Shown here: piece after piece, positions 1,626-41,180 of the stretch
Layout of the letters: the number at the start of each line of letters is the position of its first letter
Position numbering within the stretch: position 1 is the first letter of the stretch
Program-made: the position numbers and the translations under genes
Source: a virus
Virus record (IMG/VR): IMGVR_UViG_3300045971_000431
Span: 23,756 to 87,755 of that record
Direction: 5' to 3' (one strand)
DNA length: 64,000 nt
Notes under the pieces: model-generated
Database searches by the model: none
What the model saw: only the letters and a program-made list of their open reading frames with translations
What the model was told of the DNA's origin: nothing

Positions 1626-2180
1626 TCAATCGTGGAAGAATTCTTCCATTGGAACGTCGTATTTGATGCAGTCCACTGCGTGTAGACCGAGAATGAACAA
1701 CAGGTAGCAAGCACACGACGACCCGCGGCCAACTCCCCAAACAACGCCCTTCTCGCGAAAGACGTCTAGCACGTAGATGATGGTCTTCATGAACAAGCCC
1801 ATCCCACGACGCTGGATCTCAACGTACTCCATCTCCATGCGAGCGAGCGCATGGTTTTCTTCTGTCACGTTGTACTGCAGATCTCGCTCGCGATCGGCGT
1901 AGGCATCTGCGAAGCGTGTCCACAGATCCATTTTCAGGTACTCGTCAGGCATCTTCCAACGGAAGTCGAGGTTGATGGGTTCCTCGACTGCTGGCTTGAT
2001 CTCGTCTTCAGCTGCCACGTTGGCGTTGAACTGCGACAACTCCCAGGTGTCGCCAGTCACACGCAGCTGAGCAGGATGGATGCCACTCAGAAGGCAGTGT
2101 GCAACCATCTCAGCGTCGATGATCGAGACCCCGTCGAAACGGAGGATTCGACCATCGAGGGAGGTGCTAAGCCGCTTCAT
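1626..2180 (-). CDS. DNA polymerase III alpha (DnaE)-like fragment
   Basis: VWGVGRGSSCACYLLFILGLHAVDCIKYDVPMEEFF matches the DnaE GxGRGS...LGIT.VDP..Y.L.FERF block; start placed at the MKRL ATG. Confidence 0.8.
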   Translation of the reverse strand: MKRLSTSLDGRILRFDGVSIIDAEMVAHCLLSGIHPAQLRVTGDTWELSQFNANVAAEDEIKPAVEEPINLDFRWKMPDEYLKMDLWTRFADAYADRERDLQYNVTEENHALARMEMEYVEIQRRGMGLFMKTIIYVLDVFREKGVVWGVGRGSSCACYLLFILGLHAVDCIKYDVPMEEFFHD

Positions 2181-2460
2181 GCAACGTCTTGGCCGCCAGC
2201 CGCTCGCTGCGTTCAATGGCGGTCTCGCGTACCACACCTTCGGTGTACATGGCCGCCTTCATCAGCACGGTCATGGGCACGTCGGTGTACGGGTGCTCGC
2301 AGTAGAACTGCACATCGCCCCAGTTCCCGGTGCGCAGGAACGTGCGGAACGATTCGAGATGTGACTCGAGCGACGGGTCGAAGAAGGTGCGGTTGGCGCC
2401 CGAACGACGAAGCGTCGTGGACAAGTTCAGACAGTCGGGAATGTCAGTGAAGTCGGGCAT
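2167..2460 (-). CDS. Hypothetical protein
   Basis: 97 aa; SD GAGG. Confidence 0.65.
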   Translation of the reverse strand: MPDFTDIPDCLNLSTTLRRSGANRTFFDPSLESHLESFRTFLRTGNWGDVQFYCEHPYTDVPMTVLMKAAMYTEGVVRETAIERSERLAAKTLHEAA

Positions 2461-2478
2461 GGTGTCCTCTGTGGTTGA

Positions 2479-2748
2479 TCAGTCGCGAATGAGCATCTTG
2501 TAGATGTGGCGGAAGGCCAAGACCGAACCGAGTTGGTTCTCGTTCGGCTCGGCGACGATGACGCGGGTGATGGGTGAACCGTGGCCGCAGTCGTCGTCTT
2601 CGACGATTTGCCCCTCGAGCGAGAGGTACGCGTCGTACGGAATGCCGACAGATTGGTAGACCTTCTTGCGCAGCGCCTCGAGCATCTCACCAGCGTCAAT
2701 GTCAACTTCGACTTGACGATGGGTGACTTCGGTTCCCTTGATTCTCAT
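2479..2748 (-). CDS. Hypothetical protein
   Basis: Start re-placed at MRIKG, ATGA-coupled to the dCMP deaminase stop. Confidence 0.65.
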   Translation of the reverse strand: MRIKGTEVTHRQVEVDIDAGEMLEALRKKVYQSVGIPYDAYLSLEGQIVEDDDCGHGSPITRVIVAEPNENQLGSVLAFRHIYKMLIRD

Positions 2749-3206
2749 GACGTTGCCTTCAGTTGTTCGGTTGGAATTCCGAGTCGTTCGAGCATTTGGA
2801 TTCCGTCGAGAAGACGGTACTGACGCCTGAACACGACGCGCTTGATGCCGCACTGCTTCGCAAGTTTGGCACACTCGGGGCAAGGCGAATCCGTGGTGTA
2901 AAGCGTACCACCACTCGCTCGGCCATGGCCGTCTCGGGCGATCTTGGTGAGGGCGTTCGACTCGGCATGGAGAAGTTCAGGCTTCGTGAGGAGGTTCCCA
3001 TCGGGACCCCAAATTTCACAGACGTCGTCATCCCAGCCGTGTGGCATTCCGTTGTACCCGTCGGAGATGATCTGGGTTCCGACGACCACAAGGGCGCCGA
3101 CCTGTAGTCGGTTCGCCTTAGATCGCTTGGCCCAGACTTCGGCCATTTGCATGTAGGCTTCATCGAGTTCGATGCGGTTGGGATTGACTGTGATTGATGG
3201 CTGCAT
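2745..3206 (-). CDS. dCMP deaminase
   Basis: VGALVV, GYNG, HAESNA and PCPEC zinc-deaminase motifs. Confidence 0.93.
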   Translation of the reverse strand: MQPSITVNPNRIELDEAYMQMAEVWAKRSKANRLQVGALVVVGTQIISDGYNGMPHGWDDDVCEIWGPDGNLLTKPELLHAESNALTKIARDGHGRASGGTLYTTDSPCPECAKLAKQCGIKRVVFRRQYRLLDGIQMLERLGIPTEQLKATS

Positions 3207-3217
3207 GAGCCATTGTA

Positions 3218-3868
3218 TCACAGTTCCTCGAAGTAGAGACCGCGGCCGGTCAGGATGGCGATCTTTTGGTCAGGAGCGACCCACTTAATGGTGCCTTGGA
3301 CGTTCAGGCGGATGCCCTCTTCCAAGCACTTACGAGCGACGTCCAGAACCTTCTTGGAGGTGGTGTTGACCTGGAAGGGACGGCCGTAGTGAGCGGTGAG
3401 CTTCACCTTCCAGAAGATGCCGTAGTCGTTCGAGCGTTGTTCGATGCTGACGATGCGGGCCAGGAATGCGACCTTCTGACCTTCTTCGATGTGCGGCCAG
3501 ACGGCGACTTGGGCGGCGGTTTCCAGCTGCTTGTCGTACTGCTTGACGACGATGGCGATCTGAGCGGGAGAGAGAAGACCGCGGTTCTTGAGCTGGGTGG
3601 CCAGGCTCTCGATGAACTCGTTGTCGTATTGGTCGTGAGCGCTGCCGTCGATGTTGTCGTACGTGGTGCGCGACGGCTTCAAGATGGCAGCGATGGCAGC
3701 CTTGACGTGGTCCGTCAGGCTGGCCTCGAAGGCTTGGCGAGCGGCCAGACGTTCGGCTTCCCATTGTTGTTGACGCGCCTTGTAGGCGGCTTCCCGTGCT
3801 ACGATCTTCGCGGCCTTACGGTCGATGTCACGTTGTGCACGTTCTTCGGGGGTAAGTTTCTTTGCCAT
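3218..3868 (-). CDS. Hypothetical protein, N-terminal coiled coil, possible C-terminal OB fold
   Basis: Start at MAKKL, 6 nt after TATAAT. Confidence 0.7.
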   Translation of the reverse strand: MAKKLTPEERAQRDIDRKAAKIVAREAAYKARQQQWEAERLAARQAFEASLTDHVKAAIAAILKPSRTTYDNIDGSAHDQYDNEFIESLATQLKNRGLLSPAQIAIVVKQYDKQLETAAQVAVWPHIEEGQKVAFLARIVSIEQRSNDYGIFWKVKLTAHYGRPFQVNTTSKKVLDVARKCLEEGIRLNVQGTIKWVAPDQKIAILTGRGLYFEEL

Positions 3869-23704: not shown

Positions 23705-23955
23705 CGCTGCACCTTCGCTGTGTACGACGGTCCTTGACCCTGCTTTGCTGGCCGCTTGCGGATCGTCTGCTTGTGGGTGACTTGGCCGAACCACTCAGCA
23801 GGGATCTCGACGAGCACCCCACGGCGGAGACGGTGCGGCTTGCCATCGATCATCTGCACCTTGGCCCGAGACCGCCGTGGCCGGTTCTGAAGCTGCTCGA
23901 GCAGCTCAGCCATCGTACGAGCGGTGAGCGGTGTCTTGGGCCGAAGCTTGCTCAT
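23701..23955 (-). CDS. Basic hypothetical protein
   Basis: 84 aa, Arg/Lys-rich; ATGA-coupled. Confidence 0.6.
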   Translation of the reverse strand: MSKLRPKTPLTARTMAELLEQLQNRPRRSRAKVQMIDGKPHRLRRGVLVEIPAEWFGQVTHKQTIRKRPAKQGQGPSYTAKVQR

Positions 23956-28751: not shown

Positions 28752-31208
28752 TTAGAGAGCTGCGATCACGAATGCGAGCAGTTCCTCGTATCGAATACCG
28801 AGGCGAGTAACCAGTGTAGCTCCTGCAGTTTCTGCTGGTACAGTCTCGCCATTCAGCGTGTACCAAGTGTCCTCGCAGAACAAGCCGTAATCGTTGGCAT
28901 TCAATCCAGCAGCAGTAAATGCAGCCTGGACGTCTTGAGCAATCACACCCACGTGAATGCGAGCTGCAGCACCCTTGGCAGCAACAGCATCCTTGAACTT
29001 GAAACGGCGGATAAGACCCTTGATTGCCGTTGCAACCTGAAGCTCCGCGGCTGACAAGGTAAGAACCTGCTCTTTCAGGTTTGCATCAGACGTATTGATT
29101 ACGCTTGAGGAAGCATAGATAGAGCCCCAACGATATGACATGCTTCCAAGGCTTGCCATACCATCCATCACTGGCGTCAATGAGGATTCAATTTTGGTAT
29201 TGCCCCATATCGTAGTGCTCGTGGAGTCAATTGAAATCTTCTTTGCATTACTAGCTCTGATGTAAACGCCACCTGAGTATGACGACGACAGCACAAGACT
29301 ACCAGACATACCGCAGTCCATTACGGATCCGCTAGAATACCCAACGTATGCATCGCTCATACCTGAGAGTGTCATTGATAGATAACCAATGCGCAATGCA
29401 GCATTTGTGCCACTCGACATTCCCATCGCGCTCATCGTACCAATTGCGATGCCCGAAGAACCCGTTCCGCTGTATGAGCCGTCAAGATACAGTTGAGCAT
29501 TATCCATGGACATTGATGATCCAAGTTTAATGCTGCCGCTTCCGGTGTTGCCACTGCTTGAAAAGATTGTGGCTCCCATATAAGAGAAGGTCTGGTTACT
29601 TGTCCAAGTGTTCGAAGCAGTCAGACTGGCGCCACCACTAGACGCATTTTGCCAAGACGGAGAACTTGAAAGTCCACCTGAAGTCAGTACTTGGCCAGAA
29701 TTACCTGCACTGCCATTTATTACAAAAAGTGCGTTGGATGAGAAAGTCAAAGAATTGCTATTGATTGTGAGGCCACCGAAGCAACTCGTTGCTCCACTTA
29801 CCGAGAGCGAAGTCAAGGTGCCAACAGAATTCAGTGACGAGGCGGTGACATTGGAAGCCAATGTCGTGCCGGTCAAAGTGCCGGCGGCCGCGGTAGGCGT
29901 TAACCATGTAGGAGAAGCTGATGTACCTCTCGAGGTAAGCACTTCGCCGGCAACACCAGCCGTGGTTCCTGTGTTAGCGGCGTTTTTCAAAAATAGTTGA
30001 CTAATTGCCAAGCTCAAATTAGTGCAAGCTAGCTCGATAGTGGCTGCGGTGTTGCTACTAGGTGTACGGAATGCGGTAAACCATGTACTTGAAGTGTTCA
30101 ATGCGTCATTGGCGAACTTAAAGCTTACTTGACCAGTAGTCGTCTGGTCAATAACCATAAGCTTGGTATTAGCAGCAGCACCGGAATTTGACAGCCATAG
30201 CGACGGAAGGCCACTAGGGGTACCGGCATAAACACCAGTTGTGCCAATCGTTGCGCTCGGGACCAGTGATGCTGTGGCGGTCAATGTTGTAACTGCAGTC
30301 GTTGGTGTCGTCCACGTAGGAGTAGCACCAGCGCCAGCAGAAGTAAGCACTTGACCAGATGTACCGGCAGAGGCACCAACTTGCAGTGGTGATGAAGCAC
30401 CAGCCAAGTTGAGAGCACCAGTCTGTGTGTGGGTGCCGCTAACGGCAAGTGAGCCGAGCGTGCCTACTGAAGTCAGTGATGAGCCAGTGACACTGGCAGC
30501 AAGTGTAGTACCTGTCAGCGTTGAAGCATTGACAGAGTTGCCACCCAACTGGGCGAACGTCATCGCTTGGGTGCCGACTGCAGAAATAGTGGCAGTTTGT
30601 GTCCAAGTGGTGTCGCTATTGACCGTGCCGTCAGTGGTATACACTGCAGCGCCGTTGACTTCACCAACGTCAGGTGATCCGTCCATATCAGCAGCACGCG
30701 TCCATGCGCCCGCTGCAACAACGTAGACACCATTCTGTGTAGCTGTCGTTTGGTTCTTCGCCAACACTCGGTCACCAGCAACAAGAGCTACGCCGTCAAC
30801 TGTCTGTGTGCCTGACAGCGTGATATTGGCGGTGGTAGTTGCACGTACTGCATTCTTCCAAGAGAGACCTTGCACCAAACTGTCAACATACGACTTCGTA
30901 GTCAGGTGAACAGAAGACGTTGGGTCTGCTGCAACCACATTACCGGTCACGGTAAGTGAGCCGAGGGTGCCAACGGATGTCAACGATGACGAAACGACAT
31001 TCGTGGCGAGAGTTGTGCCGAGCAATGTAGCTGCATCTGCTGCTCCAGCTGAAACCCAGGCAGTGCCGCTGTAGACATACAGCGTACTATCAGTTGCTCT
31101 GAAAAACAACTCGCCGGCGTTAGCGATCAGTGGAAAAGACGTACCGGTTTCAACCGATGCGTTAGAAATTGAAGAACCTTCGACGAGACTGATGCCGTCA
31201 TAAAGCAT
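28752..31208 (-). CDS. Tail fibre with C-terminal intramolecular chaperone (peptidase S74-type)
   Basis: TSDANLKE...HVGVIAQDV...GIRYEEL; repeats SS.L.SVGTL.SL x3 and G(Q/E)VLTS x3; GDRVLAKNQ...NGVY. Confidence 0.9.
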   Translation of the reverse strand: MLYDGISLVEGSSISNASVETGTSFPLIANAGELFFRATDSTLYVYSGTAWVSAGAADAATLLGTTLATNVVSSSLTSVGTLGSLTVTGNVVAADPTSSVHLTTKSYVDSLVQGLSWKNAVRATTTANITLSGTQTVDGVALVAGDRVLAKNQTTATQNGVYVVAAGAWTRAADMDGSPDVGEVNGAAVYTTDGTVNSDTTWTQTATISAVGTQAMTFAQLGGNSVNASTLTGTTLAASVTGSSLTSVGTLGSLAVSGTHTQTGALNLAGASSPLQVGASAGTSGQVLTSAGAGATPTWTTPTTAVTTLTATASLVPSATIGTTGVYAGTPSGLPSLWLSNSGAAANTKLMVIDQTTTGQVSFKFANDALNTSSTWFTAFRTPSSNTAATIELACTNLSLAISQLFLKNAANTGTTAGVAGEVLTSRGTSASPTWLTPTAAAGTLTGTTLASNVTASSLNSVGTLTSLSVSGATSCFGGLTINSNSLTFSSNALFVINGSAGNSGQVLTSGGLSSSPSWQNASSGGASLTASNTWTSNQTFSYMGATIFSSSGNTGSGSIKLGSSMSMDNAQLYLDGSYSGTGSSGIAIGTMSAMGMSSGTNAALRIGYLSMTLSGMSDAYVGYSSGSVMDCGMSGSLVLSSSYSGGVYIRASNAKKISIDSTSTTIWGNTKIESSLTPVMDGMASLGSMSYRWGSIYASSSVINTSDANLKEQVLTLSAAELQVATAIKGLIRRFKFKDAVAAKGAAARIHVGVIAQDVQAAFTAAGLNANDYGLFCEDTWYTLNGETVPAETAGATLVTRLGIRYEELLAFVIAAL

Positions 31209-31212
31209 GGTG

Positions 31213-31243
31213 ATACCTCCAGTGATTAACGGAGGTATTTATA
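31213..31243 (-). promoter_or_regulatory. Late promoter overlapping an RBS-occluding hairpin
   Basis: TATAAATACCTCC-N10-GGAGGTAT-CACC-ATG. Confidence 0.75.
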
Positions 31244-31254
31244 GAAAGTCACCT

Positions 31255-32784
31255 CTAGGCCAGGAACGGAACTGGATCATCCCCGAACTGATCAGCCTCG
31301 TCTGCAGGGTTGACATACTCGTTGACCTGCTTGAAGGCTTCGTCATTCCACTCGGACAGTCGCTTCAAGAGGCGGATGATGCCGACGGTAGCCATCACAG
31401 CATCGTCGGTGCTACCTGCCTTGGCCTCGTAGGAACCGCCCTTGGCCACGAAGTTCTTCAGTTCATAGAGCAGCAACTCGGAGTTGATGTTCAGGCCGTT
31501 CTTCACCTTCTCGATCAGCTGCTTCAACTGCAAGCAGGCCAGGATCTTGGTGCGGCCAGTGGTGTAGACACCCAGCTTGCCAACAATATCACAGAACAGC
31601 TCAGCATGTTCAGGCTGCTTCTCGTCGTTCTGGTAGAGCGCAGAGACTGCCTCACCGATACCGTTCCGTTCGAATGTCCACAGCACCTCAGCACGTCCGC
31701 GTCCTGCGTAGCCACTCAGCTTCTGGATGATCCACTTCAGCTTCGCGTAGAGGAGTGGGATGTTCACGTCATTGGTACGGTACTCAGCAATCTGATTGAG
31801 CTGTGGGAAGTCGAACACCTCGATGACCGAGAAGTCCTTGCCAGATCCGGTTGCAGGGTCGCATGAAACCATGTACGTCTTCTGACCGCCACCGAGAGAT
31901 TCATCAGGCACCCAGAACTTGAAGCCCATGTCCTCATGGTGCGCAGGTATACCCTTAAGCTGGTGGATCTTCAGCGAGTTGATCAGCATAGCGTCTGACG
32001 ATAGGAACTCGCAGCCAACTTCCTGGCGGCACTTCAACAATCCGAGCTGACCGACCATCAAGTCCCAGTATGCGTCGCTACGTTCTGGGTGTTCACGCCA
32101 ATGCACCTCGAATGGCTTGTAGCCATTCGTGCCACCCATGGCACCGCGCCACAGCTGAGCGAAGAGTTCAGTGTCGCCGTTTGGCGTAGACGAAATGATG
32201 GCTGAACCGCCAGTAGACAACGTTGGTGTTAACGAAGCCCACAGCTCTTCCTGAATCCGCGGCGAGATGAAGGCCAATTCGTCAAGGTAGATCTTGGTGA
32301 TTGCAAGACCCCGGCCCGTCTTCTCAGTCGTGGCTTCAGAGATGATCCGCGTGCCGTTGTCGAATTCAATATTGTGGCGATTGTAGTATTTGACGCCGCA
32401 CTTGATCCATGTTGGTAACTGTTCGTAAGCGAACCGAATACGGGCGGCGATCTCAAGGGCGTGGGACTGGTTCTTCGAGGCGATCAGCAGCGTGCTGTCC
32501 TTGTTGAACATGCCGTACCACAAGAGATACATGGCTGCGGTGAGGGTCTTACCACACTGTCGAGGTTGCAGTGTGCAGACGAAACGGTTCTCCTGCATGC
32601 AGCGAACGAACCGTTCTTGGTAGTCGTACAGATCAAACGGGATGGTGCCCTTGGTCGGGTGCTGCACCATGATGTACTTGCGCATGAAGTGGACCGGGTC
32701 CTTCTGACACCGGGCCAACTCCTGAATCATTTGCGGCGTGTATTCATCCGTCGCAAATGCCCGCTTGATTTGGGTGTTTTTCAC
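31255..32784 (-). CDS. terL: Terminase large subunit (gp17)
   Basis: PRQCGKT, YLDELAF, SSTPNG, nuclease DPATGSGKD, ERNG, DDAVM. Confidence 0.96.
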   Translation of the reverse strand: MKNTQIKRAFATDEYTPQMIQELARCQKDPVHFMRKYIMVQHPTKGTIPFDLYDYQERFVRCMQENRFVCTLQPRQCGKTLTAAMYLLWYGMFNKDSTLLIASKNQSHALEIAARIRFAYEQLPTWIKCGVKYYNRHNIEFDNGTRIISEATTEKTGRGLAITKIYLDELAFISPRIQEELWASLTPTLSTGGSAIISSTPNGDTELFAQLWRGAMGGTNGYKPFEVHWREHPERSDAYWDLMVGQLGLLKCRQEVGCEFLSSDAMLINSLKIHQLKGIPAHHEDMGFKFWVPDESLGGGQKTYMVSCDPATGSGKDFSVIEVFDFPQLNQIAEYRTNDVNIPLLYAKLKWIIQKLSGYAGRGRAEVLWTFERNGIGEAVSALYQNDEKQPEHAELFCDIVGKLGVYTTGRTKILACLQLKQLIEKVKNGLNINSELLLYELKNFVAKGGSYEAKAGSTDDAVMATVGIIRLLKRLSEWNDEAFKQVNEYVNPADEADQFGDDPVPFLA

Positions 32785-33671
32785 CGAGTGAACTCACACA
32801 TGTATTCGCGGTTGAACGCCTCTTGGCCAATCATGCTGCGACGTTCCATTGCCCACATCTCGTCAGCCCATGGTACCATTGACCACGAGATGTTGACAGG
32901 AACGAAGGCCAAACCGCCACGAAGTGAAGCACCCTTTGATGCCATCTCCCAGAGCGCCTTAAATGGGTTCTCTGGCAGCCCCTCACCCTGACATGCAGGA
33001 GTAGAAGCAATCACGAGCTTGGTGTTACCGCCATACAAGCAAGGGCCGAAGTTCATGGCCATCTCTTGGTACGGGCCGTATGGCATATGCGCTGCTTGGT
33101 CGACGTAGAGCAGTGATACCGAAAGACCACGCCCAGCGTGTGCAGAGCAGGCAGAAAAACGGATGCTTGATCCATTGTGGAATTCGATGCATTGACGGTT
33201 GAAGTACCTGATATCGCAACGCAACCAAGATGGCAGTGCATCATGCATCTGCTTAATGCGTTTACGCATTTCCACACCAAAGTCAAACTTCGGCACGATG
33301 ACCAGTGAGGTGCGATTGCTCTGGAACATGGCATCCCACAAAATGTAGGCGAGCATCAGAGTCGTGGTGCCCATCTGGCGTGCATGCTTGCAGACGATCT
33401 TGCGGTGATGCGGGTTGTGGACTGCGTCGAGCATCTGGCGCTGGCCCTCATAGAGCTTCATGTCAACTTGACCATGAACTGGATGCATCACCTTGACGTA
33501 TTTCTCGATGAAGTAGGCAGGATCCTGCATGCAGCGCACCAGCTCGCCCTTCTCTTTTTCGGTGTAGACGTGTTCCAACGGATACACACGGCCTGGGCTG
33601 GACTTGATGGAACCTTGGATGCTGACGTCAGCAACAGCTTGTGTCTTGGCGCGCTTGGATAGGATCAACAT
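32781..33671 (-). CDS. Terminase ATPase-domain-only paralog, predicted inactive
   Basis: Collinear with the TerL N-domain; ARQMGTT, YVDQAA, ASTP; ends REYMCEF. Confidence 0.88.
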   Translation of the reverse strand: MLILSKRAKTQAVADVSIQGSIKSSPGRVYPLEHVYTEKEKGELVRCMQDPAYFIEKYVKVMHPVHGQVDMKLYEGQRQMLDAVHNPHHRKIVCKHARQMGTTTLMLAYILWDAMFQSNRTSLVIVPKFDFGVEMRKRIKQMHDALPSWLRCDIRYFNRQCIEFHNGSSIRFSACSAHAGRGLSVSLLYVDQAAHMPYGPYQEMAMNFGPCLYGGNTKLVIASTPACQGEGLPENPFKALWEMASKGASLRGGLAFVPVNISWSMVPWADEMWAMERRSMIGQEAFNREYMCEFTR

Positions 33672-33699
33672 TGGAGAAGTCTCCTTGAAGTGGATCCTG

Positions 33700-33705
33700 T
33701 ATTTA
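33700..33705 (-). promoter_or_regulatory. Late promoter core TAAATA for the terminase pair
   Basis: Intergenic; SD AAGGAG downstream. Confidence 0.6.
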
Positions 33706-33719
33706 CTTCTCGGCGGGGG

Positions 33720-34010
33720 TCATTTCTTGACGTTGATGACGGTGTATCCACCATCGCGCTTCACGAGCGTGAAGTCGTCGTCGGCCTGTGCCCAACCGAG
33801 ACTGATGCGTTCTTCCATGTCATGCTCGAAATCCCAAGCATACACCGTCCCGCGCTGGCCGATGCGCTGGACGGTGCCGATATAGTAGGTGACCTTGCCA
33901 CCGGGATCGCCAACGGTCAAGTCCAACCGCACAGGAACATCCTTCTTGATCAGCTTGTCAATCAGCGTCAAGAGCATGGAGTATTCCTCGAAGAGTTCAC
34001 GTGTCTTCAT
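33720..34010 (-). CDS. Putative internal head protein, family A
   Basis: N-terminus MKTRELFEE. Confidence 0.65.
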   Translation of the reverse strand: MKTRELFEEYSMLLTLIDKLIKKDVPVRLDLTVGDPGGKVTYYIGTVQRIGQRGTVYAWDFEHDMEERISLGWAQADDDFTLVKRDGGYTVINVKK

Positions 34011-34300
34011 ATCGACAATGCCCCGCCGTTCTCTCGTATAGTCCAGATGCCATCTTCTTTGGTAAGTGATATGCCGATATCCTCGTCCCGCTGACCAAGC
34101 GTAAAGCCGTTATCGGACAATACGACTCTGTTGCCTTCCATTTTCACGATAGGTATCATCACGTCGGTGCGGATCTTTTCTGGCCACGGCCAGGTTTTGA
34201 CGTACACCTGCACCTTCTCACCCTTCTTCAGGAGATTGCTGATCAAGCTAGCCAAGAGCACAGTTTCCGCTTCAGCTAGGAATTGCTTGAAGGTCTTCAC
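34007..34300 (-). CDS. Putative internal head protein, family A
   Basis: N-terminus MKTFKQFLAE. Confidence 0.75.
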   Translation of the reverse strand: MKTFKQFLAEAETVLLASLISNLLKKGEKVQVYVKTWPWPEKIRTDVMIPIVKMEGNRVVLSDNGFTLGQRDEDIGISLTKEDGIWTIRENGGALSI

Positions 34301-34620
34301 ATCAGTATCGGTTTCCCGCCCTTCTCACGAAGCGTCCAGATACCCTTCTCCTGCTTGAACTTCATGCGATCATCGTCATCACCAAAGAATTCGTCTTCAG
34401 TGTCATTGAACTCGAACCAAGTTTCGTTTGTGTCAGTCTTGACCCACATGCGCCGGCTCTCGGCCTTTACGATCTGCTTCAGACCTGTGTCAGCCTCCCC
34501 GCCAGGATTGAATATCTCCACGTAAGCCTGAACCTTCTCGCCCTTCTTCAGGAGACTGGCAATCATGCGCGCAAGCAGTGGCACGCTTTCTTCAGCCAGA
34601 AATTCCTTGAAGGTCATCAT
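34297..34620 (-). CDS. Putative internal head protein, family A
   Basis: N-terminus MMTFKEFLAE. Confidence 0.75.
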   Translation of the reverse strand: MMTFKEFLAEESVPLLARMIASLLKKGEKVQAYVEIFNPGGEADTGLKQIVKAESRRMWVKTDTNETWFEFNDTEDEFFGDDDDRMKFKQEKGIWTLREKGGKPILM

Positions 34621-34934
34621 TGGTCGATCACTCGGAAGTAGCCCCTCTTTGGATCCGTTTCATCGCCGGGGCGGGAGTCAGGGCCAATTGCAGGTGGAAT
34701 GCGTTCGAGATCATAACGATCGTCATCATCATTCTGCATCGGGATCATGTAGTATCTGCGGTTCGTGTAGACTTCGATCTTGTTGTCACGAACAGAAACG
34801 ATTTCACCGGTAACGTGGCCCTCAGGTGTATTCGCCACCCAATCTATCCGGCGACGGTCAGCTTTGAGTTTCATGAGAAGCTTCCACACGAGCGGCAGCT
34901 TGAACTCTTGCTGTAGGATTTCGCTGATCTTCAT
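34617..34934 (-). CDS. Putative internal head protein, family A
   Basis: N-terminus MKISEILQQE. Confidence 0.6.
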   Translation of the reverse strand: MKISEILQQEFKLPLVWKLLMKLKADRRRIDWVANTPEGHVTGEIVSVRDNKIEVYTNRRYYMIPMQNDDDDRYDLERIPPAIGPDSRPGDETDPKRGYFRVIDQ

Positions 34935-35227
34935 TCTGCATTGTCCACGAATTGATCACAAGCACTGTTGATGGCAGCGATCACCTCTTCAGGTGATAGG
35001 TTGGCCCTTTCCTGTCGCATCGATCCGCCCTTGTAGATCTGCATGTGCCAGTTGCCGTCATGCTTCTGGTAGAATATGTCGCTGCTGCAATTACCACCAA
35101 CATTGACGGTGATAGAGCCGTTCTTGTTTGTCTTGACCAAGTAACCAGCCTTGTCAATCAGCTTGGTCATGAGCTTGACGTTGAAGGCCTTGTCGTCTTC
35201 GTCTTCGAGTAGTTGATGAACCTTCAT
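34931..35227 (-). CDS. Putative internal head protein
   Basis: N-terminus MKVHQLLE; ATGA-coupled. Confidence 0.6.
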   Translation of the reverse strand: MKVHQLLEDEDDKAFNVKLMTKLIDKAGYLVKTNKNGSITVNVGGNCSSDIFYQKHDGNWHMQIYKGGSMRQERANLSPEEVIAAINSACDQFVDNAE

Positions 35228-36024
35228 ACCTTGAAGTCCTCTCCTGGCATTACGCTCAGAACCCATTCATTGTCATCCACCTTACCGAGGTGGAGCGCAT
35301 CATCATCTTCAGGAAGCAGTTCGAACCATGTGTCTGTTTTGGTCTCGATGACATCTCCATGCCTGTCAAGACGTTCCTTCGGTTCCTTGAAATTGATCTG
35401 GATGTATGGAATGTTGGCAGGCACTTTGTTATCTGAACGCAGCGTCACTGTGCCGATGTGACCGGGTAGTTCACTGTGAATGGTGCCACCATCAGCAAGA
35501 ATCTTCTTGATTGCTCGGAAGACAAAGGAGCTTCGGCCTGGTTCAAACTCTTCAGCCATCAAGTTCTTCTTGATGCGGCGAATGACTTCATTTGCATCGC
35601 CCTTCAGATCAAGCCGCTGCAGTGCATCTCGCAGTTCATCATGTGCAGACTCGACCCAATTGAAACCTATCCAGGGGCCATTGATGTGCTTTCCAATCTT
35701 TGGCATCCAATCGAACATTGGCTTCACGTCAGGGTAGCGTTCAATTCCGGCTCGTAGGATGTCATTCAGCATGTCGAGATCGGAACCCTTAGTCAGCTGG
35801 TAACCGGTGCGGAACTGCAGGCCACCTACGTAGATGCCGTAGTCCTCGAGACCATCCACGCCCCGGGTGCTCTTCACATCGGTGACTGTGAAGAGTTTCT
35901 TCTGCACGAATTGGACAAAGCGAAACAGGTCCTGGGCAGCCTGATTGCCAGCCTCCTGCTTGCGAGCAAGTTCTGCTTGAACTTGCTCTTCCCAGTCGGG
36001 TGATAGGACTTCAGCTACCTTCAT
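35224..36024 (-). CDS. Putative internal head protein with C-terminal family A domain
   Basis: N-terminus MKVAEVL; internal VES and LMAE sites. Confidence 0.6.
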   Translation of the reverse strand: MKVAEVLSPDWEEQVQAELARKQEAGNQAAQDLFRFVQFVQKKLFTVTDVKSTRGVDGLEDYGIYVGGLQFRTGYQLTKGSDLDMLNDILRAGIERYPDVKPMFDWMPKIGKHINGPWIGFNWVESAHDELRDALQRLDLKGDANEVIRRIKKNLMAEEFEPGRSSFVFRAIKKILADGGTIHSELPGHIGTVTLRSDNKVPANIPYIQINFKEPKERLDRHGDVIETKTDTWFELLPEDDDALHLGKVDDNEWVLSVMPGEDFKV

Positions 36025-36359
36025 GCGTCCACCAATTCGTAGTATCCAGCCCATTCGCCATCAGCAATTTTGTGGATCTTGTAGCTGTCATCGACAGGAG
36101 TTTGCAGCATGAAGAAGCTGTTGCTAACGTTTCCCGGTTCGCGCGGCTTGCGCGAGTGATCATAGATGATGTGCTCGTCCTTGATACGGATGATGCGACC
36201 AACAACGTGTCGCTTGTACGATCTCATGCCAATATCGCGGGTGCCGGTGTGTTCACCTTTGCTATGAGCGTTGAGCAGGACAGTTTCTCCCTTGTCTAGC
36301 AGCTTTTGCAGCCAGAACAGGAGATCACTCTCTTCCTCGAAGAGCTCCGTGACTTTCAT
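36021..36359 (-). CDS. Putative internal head protein, family A
   Basis: N-terminus MKVTELFEE. Confidence 0.65.
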   Translation of the reverse strand: MKVTELFEEESDLLFWLQKLLDKGETVLLNAHSKGEHTGTRDIGMRSYKRHVVGRIIRIKDEHIIYDHSRKPREPGNVSNSFFMLQTPVDDSYKIHKIADGEWAGYYELVDA

Positions 36360-36571
36360 GGGTGTGCAATTTGGGCGTGTACGAATTGGTGCTTTGAACG
36401 GTCGATCTTGCCTGTCTTGCGGTCGATCTTGCCACCATACAACTCAGCCTGGCGGTGAACACGGGCATTCAGTTGCTTCATGGCTTTCATGATCGTCTTC
36501 TGATCAACAGGCCCAGCGGGCGTGCCGTCAAGCAGCTTGAAGTCAGGATCAAAGAGCTCGGCTACTTTCAT
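36356..36571 (-). CDS. Putative internal head protein
   Basis: N-terminus MKVAELF. Confidence 0.6.
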   Translation of the reverse strand: MKVAELFDPDFKLLDGTPAGPVDQKTIMKAMKQLNARVHRQAELYGGKIDRKTGKIDRSKHQFVHAQIAHP

Positions 36572-36924
36572 GAGAGGTTGTCCATCTTGTACTTGATCTG
36601 CGCCACGATGCCTTGCAGTTCCTGGTACTTGTTGACGAGGTAGCCTTCGGAGATCTTCTCACTCATGGCTTCGAGACCATCATGGAGCTGGTGCACGAAT
36701 GCAACTGGATCCTGTTCATTGAAGGGATTGGGATCAGACTGCTCGATGTGCACTTCATCCTGACCGTGGGCGCCCATGTACATCTCCATCAGGCTGTCAG
36801 CAAAGTCAGTGAGTGCTTCATACAGCTCACCCAAAGCGAGATGCTGAGCGAAAGACTTGGTCTTCCAGTGGTGCACGTGAGCGCAGCGCTGGGCCATGAG
36901 TAGATTGCGGATGATGTTTTCCAT
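36568..36924 (-). CDS. Dps/ferritin-like protein
   Basis: HVHHW...FAQHLALGELYE.L...AD.LME; TAAATA at 36946..36951. Confidence 0.8.
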   Translation of the reverse strand: MENIIRNLLMAQRCAHVHHWKTKSFAQHLALGELYEALTDFADSLMEMYMGAHGQDEVHIEQSDPNPFNEQDPVAFVHQLHDGLEAMSEKISEGYLVNKYQELQGIVAQIKYKMDNLS

Positions 36925-39926: not shown

Positions 39927-40273
39927 ACTTCATCTTCACGGGTGACAGTACACACCCAACGCCATTCGCTCGGGCGAAAGTATTCATCAAGTGTTTCCAA
40001 GAATTTCTTGAGCTTTGCTAAGTCATCCAGCCCAAAGTGGACGAGACTAGACCCAAGCCGGCCTGGCTTATGTTTGATGATCTTTCGCGCGATGGTTATG
40101 ATGGCATCTTGATCAGCATCTGTCTGTTCAACTGAAAAGCCCTGTTTCACTTCGATATCGACTTCGAGATAATCACACATGAGCGAGAACTTAATGGCAG
40201 GCAGGATATCCTTCCCGCTGTGCACAAAGAACAGATTAGGATCATGCTCAGAAGCGATCTCGAAGAGCTTCAT
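39923..40273 (-). CDS. Putative internal head protein
   Basis: N-terminus MKLFEIASE. Confidence 0.55.
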   Translation of the reverse strand: MKLFEIASEHDPNLFFVHSGKDILPAIKFSLMCDYLEVDIEVKQGFSVEQTDADQDAIITIARKIIKHKPGRLGSSLVHFGLDDLAKLKKFLETLDEYFRPSEWRWVCTVTREDEV

Positions 40274-40722
40274 ACCTTCTTGAACTCCCCGTCAACAGCG
40301 ATCATCTTCATGATGTCTTCACGTGATGCAACGACCACGTTGTTCTGTGTCTTGCCAGCGTAGGGCACGAAGGCATTCGTCTTCTTGCGATCGCTCTTGA
40401 CCTTGGCACGGGTGGCAGCAGCGTTCAGCGCGATGTTTAGGTAGTTCGCGGCAACTTCAGCATTGCGGGCAGCGTAACGCGGCTCCACAATCTCAGTGTA
40501 AGCCATCTGATTCTGGAAGGTGTCGTAAGCAGCATCGTAGACCTGGTCGATCTTCTTGTTGATCTCGATGTCTTCCTCATCAATCTCAGGAGCAGGAGCT
40601 TCAGATTGCAGAGCAGCAAGCTCGCCTTCTGTGGCTTGCTCGTACTCAACGATCTCGGTTGGCTGCTCAGTCTCAAACAGCTCATCGAGCGGGTTGACAA
40701 GCTTGGACTTCACTGGCATCAT
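40270..40722 (-). CDS. Terminase small subunit (gp16-like) candidate
   Basis: Two central helices joined by EPR...AEVAA; C-terminal NNVVVASREDIMK. Confidence 0.6.
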   Translation of the reverse strand: MMPVKSKLVNPLDELFETEQPTEIVEYEQATEGELAALQSEAPAPEIDEEDIEINKKIDQVYDAAYDTFQNQMAYTEIVEPRYAARNAEVAANYLNIALNAAATRAKVKSDRKKTNAFVPYAGKTQNNVVVASREDIMKMIAVDGEFKKV

Positions 40723-41180
40723 ACGGCTCTCCCCATTGCAGGTGGTTGTTTCTGGCGGATGCCGGCAAACATCGTCTTCTCGGTGACCACGCGGAAGGTG
40801 GCGCCGTGTTGCTCAGCAAAGATGGCCGCGGCTTTCCACTTGGCATCATTGACGGCAAGTGCCTGCAGATCCCGAGGTGTAGACTTTGGCGTGGCGACAG
40901 TTTCCTTGTATGGCTTGATCTCGACGATCTCCTTACGCAGGGAACCATCCTTGTGTTTATAGAGCACGACAATGTCAGGGAAGTAGCGGTGCACGCGCAT
41001 GTCGAGAGGACTCACATACGGAATGTACAGCTCTTCAGAACCCCACCGCAGAATTGCAGGGTTGGCATCAAGCCACTGAAAGAACCGCAACTCCCACGAA
41101 CTTCTCCACACCACATTGTTTACGTTACCAACGTATTTCTGTGGATTTTTAGGAATGAACCGTCCTCTTGCTGTTGCCAT
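40719..41180 (-). CDS. Head completion protein (gp4-like, TnsA-type fold)
   Basis: GRF.PKNPQKY.G, RSSWE, WGSE...IPY, HRYFPD, EIKP. Confidence 0.92.
   Translation of the reverse strand: MATARGRFIPKNPQKYVGNVNNVVWRSSWELRFFQWLDANPAILRWGSEELYIPYVSPLDMRVHRYFPDIVVLYKHKDGSLRKEIVEIKPYKETVATPKSTPRDLQALAVNDAKWKAAAIFAEQHGATFRVVTEKTMFAGIRQKQPPAMGRAV

Follow-up and report, generated by a model that had tools for sequence, protein, structure and literature searches.

A probably non-catalytic, ATPase-only copy of the large terminase directly ahead of terL in a T4-related jumbo phage

Introduction

Why should a phage carry, directly ahead of the gene for its large terminase (TerL), a second terminase ATPase domain whose catalytic residues are gone? 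The question is raised by a stretch of 64,000 nucleotides, hereafter the window, which corresponds to positions 23,756 to 87,755 of IMG/VR record IMGVR_UViG_3300045971_000431, an 87.7-kb contig of a T4-related jumbo phage from a pond metagenome (CheckV completeness 32%). On the minus strand of the window, an open reading frame (ORF) of 296 amino acids with an ATG start (32781..33671, stop codon included) precedes the gene for the 509-residue TerL (31255..32784), which starts with GTG. A first reading of the letters, hereafter the sequence-only reading, had taken this ORF for a retained pseudo-enzyme that acts as a sensor decoy, a regulator of the packaging motor or a dominant-negative protein. 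Here, we find that its product is a copy of the TerL ATPase domain that lacks the nuclease and is predicted to be non-catalytic, designate it pseudo-TerL, and weigh what it may do for the phage.

Results

Pseudo-TerL keeps the terminase ATPase fold and lacks its catalytic residues

Pseudo-TerL shared 30% identity with the adjacent TerL over 263 residues (BLASTP, E 3e-40). The alignment was collinear across the ATPase domain, from YT..EL.RC..DP.YF to REYMCEF in the paralog and QEVGCEF in TerL, and the ORF ends two residues past CEF, at the ATPase/nuclease boundary, as the sequence-only reading had proposed. The paralog matched Pfam Terminase_6N at 27.6 bits (cut-off 22 bits), which TerL passes too, and both proteins matched TerL families of the PHROG database, the paralog matching TerL families only. 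The TerL itself retains RQCGKT, YLDE and the STP motif intact and has a nuclease domain. In pseudo-TerL, the Walker A motif or P-loop, with K-H just before it, has degenerated to ARQMGTT (33363..33383, minus strand) and Walker B to LLYVDQ (33096..33113, minus strand). The substitutions of the Walker A lysine by threonine and of the catalytic glutamate by glutamine, already noted in the first reading, were borne out by alignment with TerL and with T4 gp17, in which RQMGTT aligned to RQLGKT and YVDQ to YIDE. Thus, of the hallmarks of a large terminase, the ATPase domain is present, and the Walker A lysine, the Walker B glutamate and the RNase H-like nuclease domain are absent. Because all three are gone, pseudo-TerL is predicted to be capable of neither ATP hydrolysis nor DNA cleavage.

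The fold, by contrast, is preserved. An AlphaFold2 model built from a 92-row alignment reached a pLDDT of 91 and a pTM of 0.87, with residues 1-35 disordered (pLDDT 50-55). Its best Foldseek matches were ATPase structures of T4 gp17 (2o0h, TM 0.79, rmsd 2.2 Å), whose N-terminal ATPase domain belongs to the same Pfam family, followed by the TerL ATPase domains of P74-26, HK97, D6E and Sf6 and by the Avs3-bound PhiV-1 terminase (8dgc). Also kept are the adenine-binding glutamine, the R-Q-x-G of the P-loop, the arginine of the GRG motif (33126..33134, minus strand) and the S-T-P coupling (C) motif (32997..33005, minus strand). Judged by its location, some 10 residues ahead of Walker B, the GRG arginine would correspond to the trans arginine finger R139 of P74-26 TerL.

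The loss of catalytic residues is conserved across a family

RQTGTT and YVDQ also stand in two orthologs from metagenomes, P0002 (77% identical) and P0003 (68%), which both end in REYMCEFT; the two substitutions are thus conserved in these orthologs. In a profile search over 1.8 billion cluster representatives, about 45 of the best 150 matches were ATPase-only proteins that stop 0-7 residues past the same boundary. Most of them lack the Walker A lysine and/or the Walker B glutamate, and the T/Q pair of the window copy recurs in P0083 and P0028; the class of ATPase-only, mostly dead TerL copies is therefore large. Motifs were counted in 20 paralogs of the window's clade and in 43 full-length TerLs. 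The Walker A lysine and the Walker B glutamate each survive in a single paralog and the Walker B aspartate in 11, against all 43 TerLs in every case. R98 and G101 are invariant in both sets; Q99 and P225 are each present in 18 paralogs and all TerLs. The GRG arginine is found in 13 paralogs, with lysine in four more, and in 42 TerLs, and S223 in all 20 paralogs and 41 TerLs, the other two having threonine. Within the clade, a new P-loop of the form K-H-[AP]-R-Q-x-G is conserved. Since the catalytic lysine and glutamate were lost while neighbouring motif residues were kept and this new P-loop became fixed, the pattern argues for selective remodelling and not for random decay.

Not every short form is catalytically altered, which bears on whether pseudo-TerL could still be an active ATPase through non-canonical residues. 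The L009-type paralog retains GKT and DE. In addition, the full-length TerLs of five sequences (L006, which is Microcystis phage Mel-JY01, L071, P0113, P0120 and P0135) lack the canonical Walker A lysine and begin their P-loop with a lysine (K-x-R-Q-x-G-[IL]-S), D-E being intact. These TerLs are probably active, and their arrangement resembles the lambda gpA type. In the window paralog, however, the first P-loop position is histidine, the lysine preceding it is also common in normal TerLs, and Walker B reads D-Q, with G-D, D-S, D-N or D-G in clade mates and hence no consistent carboxylate. We regard cryptic ATPase activity as very improbable.

Pseudo-TerL overlaps terL and shares its strand

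The paralog and terL overlap in GTGA (32781..32784, minus strand, read from the bases), which joins the TGA stop of the former to the GTG start of the latter. The GTG start gives the N-terminus MKNTQIKRAF, in agreement with the MKNPQ(I/L)KRA start of related TerLs. A Shine-Dalgarno sequence, AAGGAG (33681..33686, minus strand), lies 9 nt 5' of the paralog ATG. The intact frame, ribosome-binding site and overlap claimed at the outset all hold, and they suggest that the paralog is co-translated with TerL from one strand by translational coupling. The claimed late promoter held only in part. T4-type late boxes, TATAAATA or CATAAATA (perfect or one-mismatch TATAAATA), are enriched on the minus strand (16 against 5.65 expected), and such boxes lie almost all on the coding strand. 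One of them (31236-31243) separates terL from the gene for the tail fibre. Upstream of the paralog, however, no perfect or one-mismatch TATAAATA was found, and an imperfect AGTAAATAC stands there instead. A possible variant box is GTAAATAC (33699..33706, minus strand) within AGTAAATACAGG; it may be a real signal because the same 12-mer also stands directly 5' of terL in the relative L110, which has no paralog.

The arrangement recurs in related viral contigs, where the order is alpha/beta-hydrolase, paralog, TerL and tail fibre, with stop/start overlaps of 1 or 4 bases between paralog and terL (L009, L020, L091-L093 and others). The hydrolase gene, of about 192 codons, lies directly 5' of the paralog, or directly 5' of terL in contigs without one (L009 6664-7239, L020 101-679, L091 1486-2064 and others), and is absent from this position in the window. 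In L072, which is less closely related, a gp4-like ORF is followed by the small terminase (TerS), the paralog and TerL. L121 carries two copies, dead-ATPase ORFs of 278 and 230 amino acids that stand in tandem before terL (2137-3666).

The family appears old, evolves fast and is patchily distributed

In a FastTree phylogeny of the ATPase domain, short forms grouped together and not with their cognate TerLs, with 3 label changes against 31 in shuffled trees. The short forms sit on long branches, so long-branch attraction is a caveat to this grouping; synteny independently supports their orthology. The family would be an old one. The paralog diverges far more than its neighbours. Identity between the window and L091 was 83% for TerL and 35% for the paralog (no hydrolase being present in the window); between L009 and L020 it was 84% for TerL, 75% for the hydrolase and 39% for the paralog; and between L092 and L093 it was 88%, 84% and 62%, respectively. 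Nei-Gojobori dN/dS for L092/L093 was 0.37 in the paralog (dS 0.82), 0.12 in TerL and 0.11 in the hydrolase. For window/L091 it was 0.52 in the paralog and 0.10 in TerL, at an equal dS of about 1.4 that is near saturation; the equal dS fits vertical descent. These values are consistent with purifying but relaxed selection, or with a mixture of purifying and diversifying selection. The amino-acid change of the paralog, about five times faster than that of TerL, together with the missing Walker A lysine, catalytic glutamate and nuclease and its dispensability in relatives, sets it apart from gp17-type TerLs.

Presence was scored in those distinct related TerL loci whose upstream sequence was long enough, and the paralog was found in 20 of 39. 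The TerL tree (FastTree) requires 10 gains or losses, seven of them forced by well-supported branches. L110 and L111, whose TerLs are 84% identical to that of the window, lack the paralog, as do L130 and L148, whose TerLs are nearly identical to that of the paralog-bearing L129. In the 87%-complete G002 and the 70%-complete G003, no second TerL-ATPase copy was found anywhere. The distribution marks the paralog as an accessory gene.

Such repeated loss, constraint that is relaxed relative to TerL, and an eroding N-terminal extension (see below) are what a functionless remnant of a partial tandem duplication, heading for loss, would leave behind. Scattered stops and frameshifts, the marks of neutral decay, were looked for in the homologs. 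Reading frames are intact in more than 20 lineages, every copy inspected is intact and ends at the same boundary, absence elsewhere is clean, and no frameshifted relic was seen among the copies inspected. With dN/dS at 0.37-0.52 and not about 1, motif residues selectively kept, K-H-[AP]-R-Q-x-G newly conserved, and a family that does not group with its cognate TerLs, a mere remnant is improbable; the retention of the pseudo-enzyme claimed in the sequence-only reading agrees with these results.

A scan of metagenome contigs found no relative, no nucleotide-level relative was found among isolated phages, and a search of viral sequences with the single protein gave no match. Among the listed public runs, no RNA run carrying the window phage was found, and the contigs of three runs yielded only identical fragments and divergent TerL pieces. 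Close relatives do co-occur in the same samples. This co-occurrence, the fast evolution and patchy distribution, and a dead ATPase with an intact fold and ring- and portal-facing parts would suit a dominant-negative weapon that poisons the TerL ring of a co-infecting related phage or blocks its portal. Against it, the phage's own TerL, co-translated 1:1, would be threatened as well, and no specificity determinant was identified in the paralog; this role seems about as improbable as that of a remnant.

The N-terminus of the family derives from the portal

The N-terminal insert of P0002 and P0003 matched positions 183-236 of Pfam Portal_T4 (E 2e-6 and 6e-5) and also residues 261-309 of T4 gp20 and the portals of hundreds of phages. 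In the relative G001 (98% complete), residues 17-60 of P0002 aligned to portal residues 240-284 at 51% identity (E 8e-10), and residues 27-73 of P0018 to the following stretch, 274-326 (E 2e-7). Homology to the portal stem/clip was significant in four orthologs (P0002, P0003, P0012 and P0018). In gp20 the stem comprises residues 255-278 and the clip, where gp17 attaches, residues 279-358; the clip-tip residues N291, M292, R295 and K296 touch gp17, and a peptide of residues 288-311 binds gp17 and inhibits packaging (PMC4493910). The stretch matched by the insert therefore contains the gp17-docking clip tip as defined in that report. Because the inserts match portals, the ancestral protein of the family was a portal stem/clip segment, that is, the docking element of TerL, fused to a TerL ATPase domain. 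P0082 still joins such an N-terminus to intact Walker motifs.

In the window, this extension is vestigial. The paralog carries a deletion of about 46 amino acids relative to P0002/P0003, leaving MLILSKRAK... and ...SSPGRVYPLEH; it has no significant portal match itself, and the flanking vestiges alone align. They form the disordered N-terminal 35 residues (33567..33671, minus strand). Different lineages deleted different parts of the portal-derived N-terminus, the clip-derived piece being eroded in most of them and absent from the L009/L020 type. A short N-terminal M(K)ILSKRA(R/K) is common to about a dozen members that are elsewhere about 30-35% identical.

Pseudo-TerL does not replace the small terminase

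PF11053 (TerS) was not found. Phrog_445 gave a T4-type TerS candidate of 150 amino acids (40270..40722, minus strand, E 7e-6), 6.6 kb upstream on the same strand as the paralog and next to a gp4-like ORF, and likewise in G001. The paralog matched neither PF11053 nor phrog_445. Since a separate TerS candidate is present, the idea that the paralog replaces TerS was rejected. The portal-derived N-terminus, the patchy distribution and this separate TerS all go beyond the sequence-only reading. The TerS candidate and the 153-aa ORF upstream of it (together 40270-41180, minus strand) are similar to the ORF pair that precedes the paralog in L072. On inspection by eye, the 153-aa ORF is a candidate for a T4 gp4-like head-completion nuclease. 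In the window, inserted genes spanning about 6.6 kb lie between this pair and terL.

A protein annotated as 'terminase small subunit' in Sinorhizobium phage Phosso (XYS97501.1, L099 1809-2654) is actually another dead, ATPase-only TerL paralog. Like the window copy, it is half-length, has lost the catalytic residues (GRSMGIT and FADN) and ends at the same boundary (...CEFKDAQI). It differs in belonging to another lineage and in being unlinked to terL, and the portal-clip N-terminus and the presence/absence mapping were shown only for the window's family.

A further possibility is a dispensable regulator of the packaging motor, in which the dead domain would serve as a pseudo-subunit, paired with TerL or seated on the portal. 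It might donate the GRG arginine or fill a site in the ring or on the portal, and so tune ATPase, nuclease or the timing of motor assembly, and its clip-derived N-terminus would at first have been a tether to TerL. Coupling to terL in many relatives, the place between TerS and TerL in L072, the retained GRG arginine, R-Q-x-G and C-motif, and the small-subunit annotation of the Phosso homolog are all in keeping with such a role, and so is an N-terminus taken from the gp17-docking part of the portal, the inhibitory 288-311 peptide being the precedent (PMC4493910). On the other hand, roughly half of the close relatives do without the gene, some of them phages with a nearly identical TerL; it changes much more quickly than the TerL that it would need to match, its clip piece is eroded in most lineages, and a separate TerS exists. 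A regulatory role is thus credible and still unlikely.

Candidates in other phages and neighbouring genes

ORF256 of XacN1, a nearest isolate, lies upstream of terL and showed no TerL-paralog homology; RsoM2USA, also a nearest isolate, has no same-strand gene upstream of terL. The two 'large terminase' coding sequences of the related Salmonella phage SD-6_S16 (L098 1810-4102) are a split TerL and not a paralog. An overlapping upstream ORF of 227 amino acids in that phage shows PPRIGTT by eye and matches neither Pfam nor the paralog profile. XaC1/XbC2 are described as having 'two large terminase homologs in tandem' (PMC11273794).

Directly upstream of the paralog in the window, six small paralogous ORFs (96-112 amino acids) and the C-terminus of a 276-aa ORF stand in tandem (33720-36359, minus strand). 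No PHROG match was found for this array, and members of the same small-ORF family occupy the same neighbourhood in relatives. Further upstream, a 118-aa ORF (36568-36924, minus strand) matches phrog_858 ('starvation-inducible transcriptional regulator', E 5.5e-21) and has the same place in L092, L093 and L094. Directly downstream of terL lies the gene for an 818-aa tail-fibre/tail-spike-like protein (28752-31208, minus strand), an order that is the same in relatives.

Discussion

We tentatively favour, at somewhat less than even confidence, a reading in which pseudo-TerL is a binding-only mimic of TerL with a role in conflict, through mimicry that evades defence or through the masking of TerL. 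Pseudo-TerL would be made together with TerL, from the same strand, through the stop/start overlap. It belongs to an old family whose N-terminus came from the portal stem/clip where TerL docks, a piece that is now vestigial in the window phage. Because the catalytic residues and the nuclease are gone while the fold is kept, together with the P-loop scaffold, the GRG arginine and the C-motif, the protein most likely acts by binding, mimicking a TerL subunit. It would engage a fast-changing partner that normally meets TerL, most plausibly a host sensor of TerL or portal of the Avs-like or Upx-like kind; alternatively, it would engage newly made TerL and mask it from such sensors. We prefer a role in conflict because so much divergence would not be expected if the partner were conserved, as TerL and the portal are, and because the gene is freely lost; presence in only about half of close relatives, together with the roughly fivefold faster change, points to an accessory conflict-type gene and not to a core part of the motor. 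Homology, fold, loss of the catalytic residues, purifying selection, coupling, portal origin and patchiness are observed, and from them the loss of activity, the binding and the conflict role are inferred.

Several points weigh against this reading. The ATPase domain of TerL is by itself enough to activate EcAvs2 and Upx, and the ATP-loaded active site takes part in recognition (10.64898/2026.04.30.721860), so a TerL-like fold could be a liability and not a decoy. A paralog that has lost its ATP site may be no more than invisible to the sensors, without inhibiting them. The portal-clip piece, which is the most persuasive element for mimicry, is largely deleted in the window copy and absent in the L009/L020 type. 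The apparent translational coupling to TerL and the kept GRG arginine would fit a motor-associated role equally well, and a dN/dS below 1 does not show positive selection. Activation of Avs2 and Upx by the ATPase domain can be read in two ways: a naive decoy becomes doubtful, yet the activation could explain why precisely the ATP-site residues were discarded. A more specific version of the conflict reading builds on this point, namely that the family, with its portal clip joined to a dead TerL motor domain, mimics the portal-TerL docking pair in one chain. Jumbo phages would deploy it with TerL as a shield or non-activating decoy against Avs1-4 and Upx, and its catalytic residues would have been lost since the sensors read the ATP-loaded site. 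We consider this version rather doubtful, more so than the regulatory role. Overall, we rank the conflict role first and the dispensable packaging regulator second, with a dominant-negative protein, a relic and a cryptically active ATPase less likely.

One of the closest known counterparts is vs.8 of T4, an uncharacterised protein that stands alone, is homologous to the terminase ATPase, has intact Walker motifs and activates EcAvs2 (10.64898/2026.04.30.721860). Like pseudo-TerL, it is a nuclease-less, stand-alone TerL-ATPase-like protein of T4-like phages and limited to some taxa. It differs in keeping Walker A and B and in not adjoining gene 17, whereas the window family is coupled to terL and has a portal-derived N-terminus. 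A classification of the paralog as a vs.8-like ATPase was rejected: its Walker residues are lost, and the paralog as query finds only gp17 in the T4 genome. A phrog_26724 search of T4 likewise gave no vs.8-type stand-alone match. In the literature on paralogous, duplicated or truncated terminases, we found no functional description of such a protein.

Dead paralogs that accompany an active enzyme are familiar from other systems. In Phytophthora, PsXLP1 shields PsXEG1, and the F1 alpha subunit and the clamp-loader subunits delta and delta' serve as non-catalytic subunits. In each case, a dead paralog is co-expressed with an active enzyme and acts by binding; none is homologous to pseudo-TerL, and the likeness is one of analogy only.

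Terminase and portal are conserved phage proteins that serve bacterial STAND sensors as signatures of infection. A dead copy of the terminase motor therefore offers a concrete candidate that can be cloned, either for a viral counter-measure or for a regulator of the strongest known molecular motor, and L129 on the one side and L130 and L148 on the other offer natural near-isogenic pairs that differ in the presence of the paralog.

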